Positions 8,192 through 20,460 of a stretch of 27,706 nt of DNA are shown piece after piece; the stretch's first letter is position 1; the number at the start of each line of letters is the position of its first letter. The stretch covers positions 1 through 27,706 of the forward strand of contig CAXHYW010000001.1 in assembly GCA_964021475.1 (NCBI GenBank), in the 5' to 3' direction. The notes below the pieces were generated by a model. That model was given only the letters and a program-made list of their open reading frames with translations. It did no database searches and was not told where the DNA came from. The stretch comes from an uncultured Desulfobacteraceae bacterium. Lineage in GTDB: Bacteria; Desulfobacterota; Desulfobacteria; Desulfobacterales; Desulfobacteraceae. A program made the translations under genes and the position numbers.

Positions 8192-8434
8192 ATGCTTGTA
8201 CTTAGCAGAAAAGTAGGGGAAAAAATAAAAATTGGTAAAGACATCGTGATCAATATCCTTAAAATCGAAGGGGGCATTATCCGGGTTGGCATTGATGCAC
8301 CCCAACGGATCCCTATTTTAAGAATGGAAGTGTTTGAAAAAATTCAAAATGAAAATATTGAATCTGTATCCAGAAAGACCGATGAGATCACAGATGCAAT
8401 TGAGCTTATTAAAAATAAACTTCCTAAGGAGTGA
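8192..8434 (+). CDS. csrA: Carbon storage regulator CsrA (FliW-antagonised type)
   Basis: MLVLSRKVGEKIKIG...RVGIDAP..I.ILRMEV. R44 and N55 align with B. subtilis CsrA, and the C-terminal extension typical of FliW-regulated CsrA is present. Confidence 0.97.
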   Translation: MLVLSRKVGEKIKIGKDIVINILKIEGGIIRVGIDAPQRIPILRMEVFEKIQNENIESVSRKTDEITDAIELIKNKLPKE

Positions 8435-8439
8435 GTAGA

Positions 8440-8877
8440 TTGAAAATTTTATCCAGGAAATTTGGTGAAATAGAGATTGATGATGATAAAATTCTGGTGA
8501 TGCCGGAAGGATTGCCTGGGTTTGACGGGTTTGAAAGATTTGTCCTGCTTGAGGACCCGAAAACAGCACCCTTTTGCTGGTTTCAATCCGTTGACGAGCC
8601 CAATCTTTCCATGATTGTCATGAATCCGTTTTTGTTTAAACCCGATTACGAACTGGATCTGGATGGATTTATCGGAACCCGGGACTGGGAAAACACCACC
8701 CCGGATGATTTGATTATTTATGTGGTGGTGAATGTATCGGAAAAAGAAAACGAAACAAAAATTACAGCCAATTTGATGGGGCCTTTAATCATCAATCAGA
8801 AAAACAAGGAAGTGATTCAGGCGGTTATTTCAGATACCACCTACTCACATCAGCATAATGTGCTAACCTCTTCCTAA
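8440..8877 (+). CDS. fliW: Flagellar assembly factor FliW (CsrA antagonist)
   Basis: KFGEIEI..EGLPGF..PFCWFQSVDEPNLSMIVMNPF..ITANLMGPLIIN. I prefer the TTG at 8440 (AAGGAG RBS 8 nt upstream) over the GTG at 8431. Confidence 0.95.
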   Translation: MKILSRKFGEIEIDDDKILVMPEGLPGFDGFERFVLLEDPKTAPFCWFQSVDEPNLSMIVMNPFLFKPDYELDLDGFIGTRDWENTTPDDLIIYVVVNVSEKENETKITANLMGPLIINQKNKEVIQAVISDTTYSHQHNVLTSS

Positions 8878-16336: not shown

Positions 16337-16371
16337 AAAAAAAGCCCCGGAAAATTTTTTCCGGGGCTTTT
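16337..16371 (-). terminator. Rho-independent terminator of the major flagellin gene
   Basis: Minus strand AAAAGCCCCGGAAAA-AA-TTTTCCGGGGCTTTT TTT: a long perfect stem plus a U7 tract, about 48 nt after the stop codon. Confidence 0.92.
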
Positions 16372-20297: not shown

Positions 20298-20303
20298 GTT
20301 TGT

Positions 20304-20341
20304 TCCTCCATGTTGTGTTGTTCCCGGGAATCCTTTCCCGG
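20304..20341 (-). promoter_or_regulatory. CsrA-type binding sites in the fliC leader
   Basis: Hairpin CCGGGAA-AGGA-UUCCCGG (20341-20324) has GGA in the loop. A second site, AUGGAGGA (20311-20304), overlaps the Shine-Dalgarno. This is the arrangement known for B. subtilis hag. Confidence 0.75.
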
Positions 20342-20390
20342 ACATTTTGCATAAAAAAAAGTTAGTTTGTAGCGTTAGCTCAGGGGCTAC

Positions 20391-20412
20391 CAGGATCACC
20401 TCCTTTGTCCTG
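20391..20412 (-). promoter_or_regulatory. Leader hairpin containing a 14-nt perfect complement of the 16S rRNA 3' end (orphan extended SD)
   Basis: The mRNA reads CAGGA-CAAAGGAGGUGA-UCCUG. AAAGGAGGUGAUCC (20406-20393) is the reverse complement of the 16S terminus GGAUCACCUCCUUU. Confidence 0.6.
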
Positions 20413-20433
20413 AATTTCTAACACTAAAACTAA

Positions 20434-20460
20434 GTATCGGATCTATTTCAAAATTCTTTA
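20434..20460 (-). promoter_or_regulatory. sigma28 (FliA) promoter of the major flagellin
   Basis: TAAA-GAATTTTGAAATAGA(15)-TCCGATAC against the consensus TAAA-N15-GCCGATAA, with an AT-rich tract upstream. Confidence 0.85.

Follow-up and report, generated by a model that had tools for sequence, protein, structure and literature searches.

The analysed window, a stretch of 27,706 nucleotides from an uncultured Desulfobacteraceae bacterium (assembly of 4.87 Mb, 83% complete), is a flagellar locus. Its features are collected in Table 1. The genes fliD, fliS and flaG are on the minus strand like the flagellin gene fliC, and csrA and fliW are also encoded. The sigma28 (FliA)-type promoter before fliC is the single match within the window, where 0.12 would be expected by chance; FliA is encoded in the genome, and the orthologs likewise have a sigma28-type promoter upstream. 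The promoter spacing puts the predicted +1 near 20427. Given the sigma28 promoter, FliA and the terminator-like hairpin after the stop codon, the fliC mRNA is likely monocistronic, with a length of ~4.1 kb and a leader of 130 nt. RNA-derived contigs of relatives span the fliC leader, one of them, from a groundwater metatranscriptome, extending to 20415; such contigs are unable to show ends, strand or level. A second flagellin gene follows directly 3' of fliW. It has no sigma28 leader and no sites of the CsrA signature CANGGA (PMC4894983), and its SD is weak, so it is probably outside CsrA control. Between 750 and 20297, the two flagellins (1414 and 1292 aa) and two ORFs before csrA (1432 and 1038 aa) are unusually long.

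Table 1. Features of the fliC locus and loci of similar sites elsewhere in the genome (SD, Shine-Dalgarno sequence)
Feature	Position	Strand	Remark
sigma28 (FliA)-type promoter	20434..20460	-	TAAA-N15-TCCGATAC; TAAA 20460-20457, TCCGATAC 20441-20434
Predicted 5'-terminal long hairpin	20369..20426	-	orphan SD in apical part; includes CAGGA/UCCUG stem 20412-20391; species-specific
Orphan extended SD AAAGGAGGTGATCC, no start codon	20393..20406	-	conserved part 20406-20396; GGAGG core 20403-20399
U8 run (20360-20353) plus AUG	20350..20360	-	predicted weak pairing with true SD, this species only
Conserved hairpin with ANGGAN hexaloop	20323..20342	-	predicted CsrA site 1
True SD overlapping predicted CsrA site 2 (CANGGAGG)	20304..20312	-	GGAGG 20309-20305
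Flagellin fliC, 1292 aa	16419..20297	-	Pfam Flagellin_N and Flagellin_C
Intrinsic-terminator-like hairpin	16340..16371	-	directly 3' of fliC; consensus scan only
csrA	8192..8434	+	
fliW	8431..8877	+	
Second flagellin, 1414 aa	8903..13147	+	
Orphan SD before acs			L343/L347 (C23)
Orphan SD before sodium:solute symporter			L344 (C596)
Orphan SD before binding protein			L345 (C829)
Orphan SD before ABC ATPase			L346 (C186)

What does the fliC leader contain besides the SD of fliC itself? The word AAAGGAGGTGATCC, found once in the 4.87-Mb assembly, starts 21 nt past the predicted TSS; its complement stands in the 16S tail GGATCACCTCCTTTC, which was taken from five genomes of the same family, the assembly itself being without 16S. 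In the best window, its duplex with the tail reaches -22.0 kcal/mol, compared with -9.3 kcal/mol for the true SD. It lies 95 nt upstream of the fliC ATG (20297) and has no ATG at initiation spacing; we call it the orphan SD. The initial annotation had pointed to a perfect 14-nt anti-16S match about 95 nt before the real start with no properly spaced ATG, and both the match (20406-20393) and its setting are confirmed in the sequence. Only the extent of the match has to be revised: orthologs do not keep its last three bases (TCC), so the meaningful 16S match is ~11 nt.

Is the orphan SD a peculiarity of one leader? In all, 123 flagellin upstream regions were drawn from relatives and from order and phylum samples, picked by protein similarity alone. 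A start-codon-less site at or below -14 kcal/mol is present in 60 of the 93 leaders assigned to the sigma28 type by pattern, while 7.8% of dinucleotide shuffles reach this level; the 60 carriers span ~34 Desulfobacterota family labels (our own count). Of 11 sigma54-type flagellin paralogs, assigned in the same way, none reaches -12 kcal/mol. About a third of the sigma28 flagellin leaders are without the orphan SD, mostly short ones: at -10 kcal/mol the site is found in 71 of 81 leaders of at least 95 nt and in 1 of 12 shorter leaders. The signal is also specific to these leaders, since of 724 other genes here whose upstream DNA is clear, no more than 16 (2.2%) reach -14 kcal/mol, and -17 kcal/mol is reached by 4 of the 724 versus 49 of the 93 flagellin leaders. 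An independent GTDB scan with a pattern of promoter plus motif, and no flagellin sequence, gave at least 118 usable matches. Among the matches listed, 46 lay 81-227 nt before a flagellin gene, 45 of these without an ATG at initiation spacing, and 3 were further flagellin leaders at contig edges; the rest consisted of five 16S genes, five ordinary flagellin RBSs and 59 others, 32 of these with an ATG. The carriers belong to Desulfobacterota, Nitrospirota and Nitrospinota, together with a Planctomycetales and a Coatesbacteria genome. Note that the sampled genomes are kin and not independent, so all P values in this study overstate their case. The orphan SD motif is real and conserved, and chance is hardly credible as its explanation.

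Some natural variants were seen in the same set. Compared with two leaders of the same genus (L115, L122), leader L126 has the orphan SD and the spacer missing as one block and keeps the upstream hairpin and the CsrA module, which makes it a natural deletion allele. In eight cases (L085-L088, L094, L095, L029, L045) tandem sigma54-type flagellin paralogs stand beside sigma28 copies; these paralogs are without the orphan SD, and some of them have a GGGGG-type start site.

Is the orphan site kept for the ribosome or for CsrA? Leaders were anchored on the GG[AG]GG core only, which occurs in 69 of 78 long leaders. The base preceding the orphan core is A in 57 leaders and G in 11, never C or T, while at the true SD it is a pyrimidine in 26 of 77. 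The flanks of the orphan core are GAAA and TGA, following the 16S tail, and the signal fades past ~11 nt. In six families the core has changed from GGAGG to GGGGG, which keeps 16S pairing via G.U and loses the GGA; in Campylobacter flaA, a GGA to GGG change abolished CsrA control (PMC4894983). The CANGGA signature is absent from the orphan motif, with A in 53 leaders and C in 5 at the position where the true SDs have C in 77 of 77. At the true SD, C and A are invariant in all 77 leaders, the following base is free, and an A stands after the core. The hairpin upstream of it has 89% of its cells paired and two-sided changes at all 6 pairs, with a covariation of 0.64 versus at most 0.12 in slid controls. 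The purine-only flank and the GGGGG variants, set against CANGGA downstream, suggest selection for 16S pairing at the orphan site and for CsrA at the two sites 3' of it. Ribosome pairing of the orphan SD is therefore well supported by the pattern of substitutions. The leader as a whole fits the CsrA-FliW type, for csrA and fliW are encoded and ANGGA stands in a hairpin loop, with a second site over the SD. CsrA competition at the orphan site, as the initial annotation proposed, does not agree with a motif that lacks CANGGA and tolerates GGA to GGG. In six Desulfobacterota leaders (L013, L016, L049, L064, L093, L100) the hairpin loop itself is without GGA (AGTGA, AATGA, CTGA etc.), with stem and SD site still in place, so CsrA may bind more weakly or differently there.

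The fliC leader of this species is structured in prediction (fold z = -2.1). The U8 run, the AGGA-loop hairpin, the true SD and the alternative pairings (AGTGTTAG/CTAACGCT and GTAGC/GCTAC), all part of the first description, are each present on the minus strand. CAGGA (20412-20408) and TCCTG (20395-20391) flank the orphan core, so both arms of the stem proposed to loop out GGAGG are there, but only while the nascent RNA is short is the core predicted to lie in a loop: its predicted probability of being unpaired is 0.90-0.95 in nascent RNA of 40-45 nt versus 0.40 in the full leader, where the tip of the 5'-terminal hairpin holds it partly paired. Opening the motif would cost ~5.4 kcal/mol. The true SD is predicted to be paired here (P unpaired 0.12), while it is largely open in most orthologs. 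Is any of this structure conserved? The orthologous leaders keep neither the U8 run nor the alternative pairings nor the hairpin that encloses the motif. The orphan core lies in a hairpin loop in only 1 of 69 leaders, and its accessibility and opening cost are the same as with shuffled flanks. Unrelated stems enclosing the site are slightly enriched (44% vs 27%), a weak tendency only. RNAalifold on 34 leaders gave the CsrA hairpin as the sole consensus structure, and the alignable parts of the leaders consist of one linear motif and one hairpin. A conserved hairpin or switch around the motif, with no consensus pairs to its credit, is thus not upheld. Neither the window nor eight flagellin loci had an Rfam family that reached its gathering score; one chance match was seen elsewhere.

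Then does the orphan SD serve a start codon of its own? An ATG 4-11 nt past the core is found in 2 of 69 leaders, against 8.7 expected, and ATG, GTG or TTG at this distance in 6, against 14.8. Any near-cognate codon at 5-9 nt is present in 16 of 68 leaders, against 31.5 expected; the depletion of ATG at 5-9 nt is not significant alone (2 vs 5.4, P 0.17). The reading frame of the core shows no bias relative to the flagellin start (27/22/20), and the frame is open to that start in only 7 of 69 leaders. The few uORFs present are mutually unrelated, and no conserved upstream ORF was found among the leaders. With upstream starts depleted, frames even and so few of them open, the open frame in this window appears incidental. 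Use as the RBS of a translated upstream start had been named beforehand as what would speak against the proposal; the leaders show no conserved start of this kind, and the orphan SD probably directs no translation initiation. A search for the YG pause consensus 3' of the core gave no peak past the motif's own TG.

The position of the motif is informative as well. The orphan core stands at +16 to +33 from the predicted TSS in 44 of 68 leaders, with a median of +30, and a further cluster lies around +45 to +60. From core to ATG, in contrast, the distance is anything between 82 and 204 nt. Judged by predicted transcription starts, the position is tied to the 5' end and not to the start codon. At least 34 nt separate the orphan SD from the CsrA hairpin in 52 of 57 leaders, which, from the typical footprint, would be enough for a parked subunit to spare the CsrA sites. 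What occupies this slot elsewhere? None of 48 sigma28 leaders of Bacilli and Clostridia reaches -14 kcal/mol, and a 5' hairpin is found there instead. Among the Gammaproteobacteria, 2 of 14 leaders reach -14 kcal/mol, and several have a 5'-terminal stem with a GGAGG-like word in its arm. 5' hairpins are known mRNA stabilisers, and since they occupy the slot of the orphan SD in other groups, the positional exchange favours a protective role. The layout was also looked for in one hag locus, which we take to be of the B. subtilis group; it holds there in part, as the leader has a GGGAGGAGG tract (-14.9 kcal/mol) that is predicted to be paired inside its 5' hairpin.

Two features of these outgroup leaders deserve a note of their own. 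A GC-rich 6-nt palindrome is present in 39 of the 48 Bacilli and Clostridia leaders compared with 23% of shuffles, often in the loop of the long 5' hairpin (L263, L266, L272, L294, L296, L306, L307 and L317 are examples). Its sequence varies (CGGCCG, GCCGGC, GGCGCC, GCGCGC, CGTACG, GGGCCC) while self-complementarity stays, which suggests a kissing-loop dimer motif; four such loci had no Rfam match, and no paper on it was found in the literature searched. The gammaproteobacterial leaders share a 5'-terminal stem, GCGGTAAAT ... ATATCCGC, that starts at the predicted TSS (L321, L323, L328, L329, L331, L333, L336, L338), and two of these loci had no Rfam match.

Are orphan SDs confined to flagellin? 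In this genome, extended SDs of the same kind stand 82-126 nt before acs (acetyl-CoA synthetase), a sodium:solute symporter, an ABC ATPase and a binding protein. Of 24 relatives, 16-17 retain the site before acs between diverged flanks, two of them as GGGGG, and on inspection the acs leaders of relatives have no CANGGA hairpin. Because the site is kept without the CsrA hairpin, it seems to be a lineage-wide device not tied to CsrA.

Which nucleases would such a device face? This genome has RNase J (in two pieces at contig ends) and two RNase E/G genes; RNase Y was not found in this 83%-complete assembly. Split RNase J genes on separate contigs were seen in three genomes of the genus (G003, G006, G000) and are taken as assembly breaks. 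RNase J is present in 60 of 60 Desulfobacterales searched, but two profiles did not find it in 12 of 20 more distant genomes, all 12 of which have RNase E/G. Ten of these 12 keep the orphan core, 8 with a strong site, and the ten carriers are 96-100% complete. Among carriers from other phyla, whose completeness is not established, RNase J was not found in 4 of 5. An element kept in ten genomes with RNase E/G and no RNase J match is not strictly of the Bacillus mechanism. The cry3A mechanism would suit this locus, but it can hardly be the whole story for the class.

We consider it somewhat probable that the orphan SD is a 30S parking site that shields the 5' end, resembling the STAB-SD and added to a CsrA-FliW leader. 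The leader would then consist of three modules. In the first, an extra-strong SD without start codon, ~20-30 nt past the sigma28 start, would pair with the 16S tail of a 30S subunit, which would stay without initiating and act as a roadblock to 5'-end-dependent decay, either RNase J exonucleolysis where this enzyme is present or otherwise RNase E/G scanning. The second and third, the CsrA hairpin and the weaker true SD over the second CsrA site, would form the FliW-CsrA checkpoint. The spacer, usually 35-90 nt, would leave the CsrA sites uncovered by the parked subunit, and the message may thus stay stable while its translation is repressed. A strong SD without start codon stabilises mRNA in Bacilli (PMC3997798), and a ribosome hinders RNase E scanning the more, the stronger its SD and the longer it persists (PMC9943677). 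As a counterpoint, a stably bound 5' ribosome in E. coli failed to protect lacZ mRNA from RNase E (PMC3997798). The accessibility of the orphan site, no higher than with shuffled flanks, and the third or so of sigma28 flagellin leaders that do without it also speak against the parking reading.

The same substitutions would equally be expected of a loading or standby site. There, the early SD would capture a 30S subunit co-transcriptionally and pass it on to the true start after release of CsrA; alternatively, it would hold a ribosome close to RNA polymerase and prevent Rho termination in the long untranslated leader. Translation or transcription would be affected rather than decay. Such a site would be independent of RNase J and would suit genes for which high expression is expected (fliC, acs, transporters), and here the orphan site is most open in nascent RNA of 40-45 nt while the true SD is predicted to be paired. 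However, a duplex of -17 to -22 kcal/mol should retain a subunit and not release it, the true SD of most orthologs is largely open, and the position follows the 5' end and not the start codon. Most known standby sites are single-stranded tracts that work independently of sequence. We regard loading as a serious competitor, though on balance unlikely. The first proposal, a ribosome-standby or stabiliser element competed for by CsrA, is retained on its ribosome side, with the STAB-SD type favoured.

Could another factor read the same word? The upstream AAGGA might load a CsrA dimer or improve a CsrA sponge in competition with ribosomes; the motif contains ANGGA, the loop position is possible in this species, csrA and fliW lie in the window, and flagellin mRNA titrates CsrA in Campylobacter (PMC4894983). 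The missing signature, GGG in six families, a conserved GGTGA extension irrelevant to CsrA, the single loop placement, the distance of 70 nt to the next GGA and the occurrence before acs without a hairpin make this third CsrA site improbable. A small RNA or protein as the reader is still less probable: an anti-SD sRNA would yield the same G.U-tolerant pattern, but to either side of the core the consensus agrees with the 16S tail, along 11-12 nt and in several phyla. Initiation at the site, for a small uORF or an N-terminally extended flagellin, could draw here on the frame open to the flagellin start (GTG 20399, CTG 20393) and on the CTG 5 nt past the core; with start codons depleted, no frame bias, the frame rarely open elsewhere and GTG 20399 falling within the SD itself, it is the least probable of these readings.

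If the parking reading holds, a wider scenario can be drawn, which we put forward tentatively and hold to be rather doubtful as a whole. Desulfobacterota, Nitrospirota and further understudied Gram-negative phyla would use a start-codon-less SD as a general cap, made by the ribosome, on certain abundant mRNAs, and would do so even where RNase J is absent. For flagellin, message stability would be uncoupled from CsrA-gated translation, with repressed mRNA kept in store so that filaments can be made quickly. The orphan SD, the palindromic-loop hairpin and the terminal stem would be three interchangeable 5' modules of flagellin leaders, used in different phyla. So far, STAB-SD stabilisers have been described for a small number of Gram-positive mRNAs, with RNase J as the explanation. 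A Gram-negative case that is conserved across a phylum and kept where RNase J is missing raises the question: can a non-initiating 30S subunit block decay of the RNase E/G type? It also makes testable how flagellin mRNA survives CsrA repression. In B. subtilis, CsrA lowers hag mRNA by a route not yet known (PMC6529632), and CsrA repression of fliC is unstudied in Geobacter (PMC13407953). Natural alleles (GGGGG variants, clean deletions, sigma54 paralogs) are ready controls, and the element may be a portable expression part for sulfate reducers. For annotators the sites are a warning, since an orphan SD does not mark the start of a gene. The literature searched, which covers few subscription journals, gave no account of an orphan SD in flagellin leaders; together with the lack of an Rfam match, this agrees with the suggestion that the motif is an undescribed one.

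How does the element compare with known systems? To our knowledge, standby sites rescue structured RBSs and are not extended SD sequences. They likewise are 30S-binding elements far upstream of a start, with tisB and zorO (PMC5397157) among the examples; the flagellin RBS, in contrast, is mostly open and the orphan element is sequence-specific. As in B. subtilis hag and C. jejuni flaA (PMC7652899, PMC6529632, PMC4894983), csrA and fliW lie beside flagellin and the leader has an ANGGA hexaloop hairpin and a second site over the SD, but for those leaders two CsrA sites are described and an orphan SD is not reported. A near counterpart is the STAB-SD of Bacillus thuringiensis cry3A (Agaisse and Lereclus 1996; Mathy et al. 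2007; as reviewed in PMC4113751), also a 5'-UTR SD-like sequence ~100-130 nt before the start that pairs with 16S without initiating, near the 5' end of an abundant mRNA. Unlike it, the flagellin element follows a predicted primary sigma28 start and not a processed end, occurs in Gram-negative phyla with RNase E/G, persists in genomes that gave no RNase J match, and has a CsrA checkpoint beside it; its stabilising effect is putative. The orphan SD may well work like a STAB-SD; because RNase J is missing in many carriers and binding and stabilisation are only deduced, we file it as a putative and not a proven member. The flagellin element also resembles the obstacles to RNase E scanning, where a ribosome held in the 5'-UTR by a strong SD protects distal sites and persistence matters (PMC9943677); those are engineered E. 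coli uORFs with start codons, whereas the flagellin element is natural, conserved and start-codon-less.
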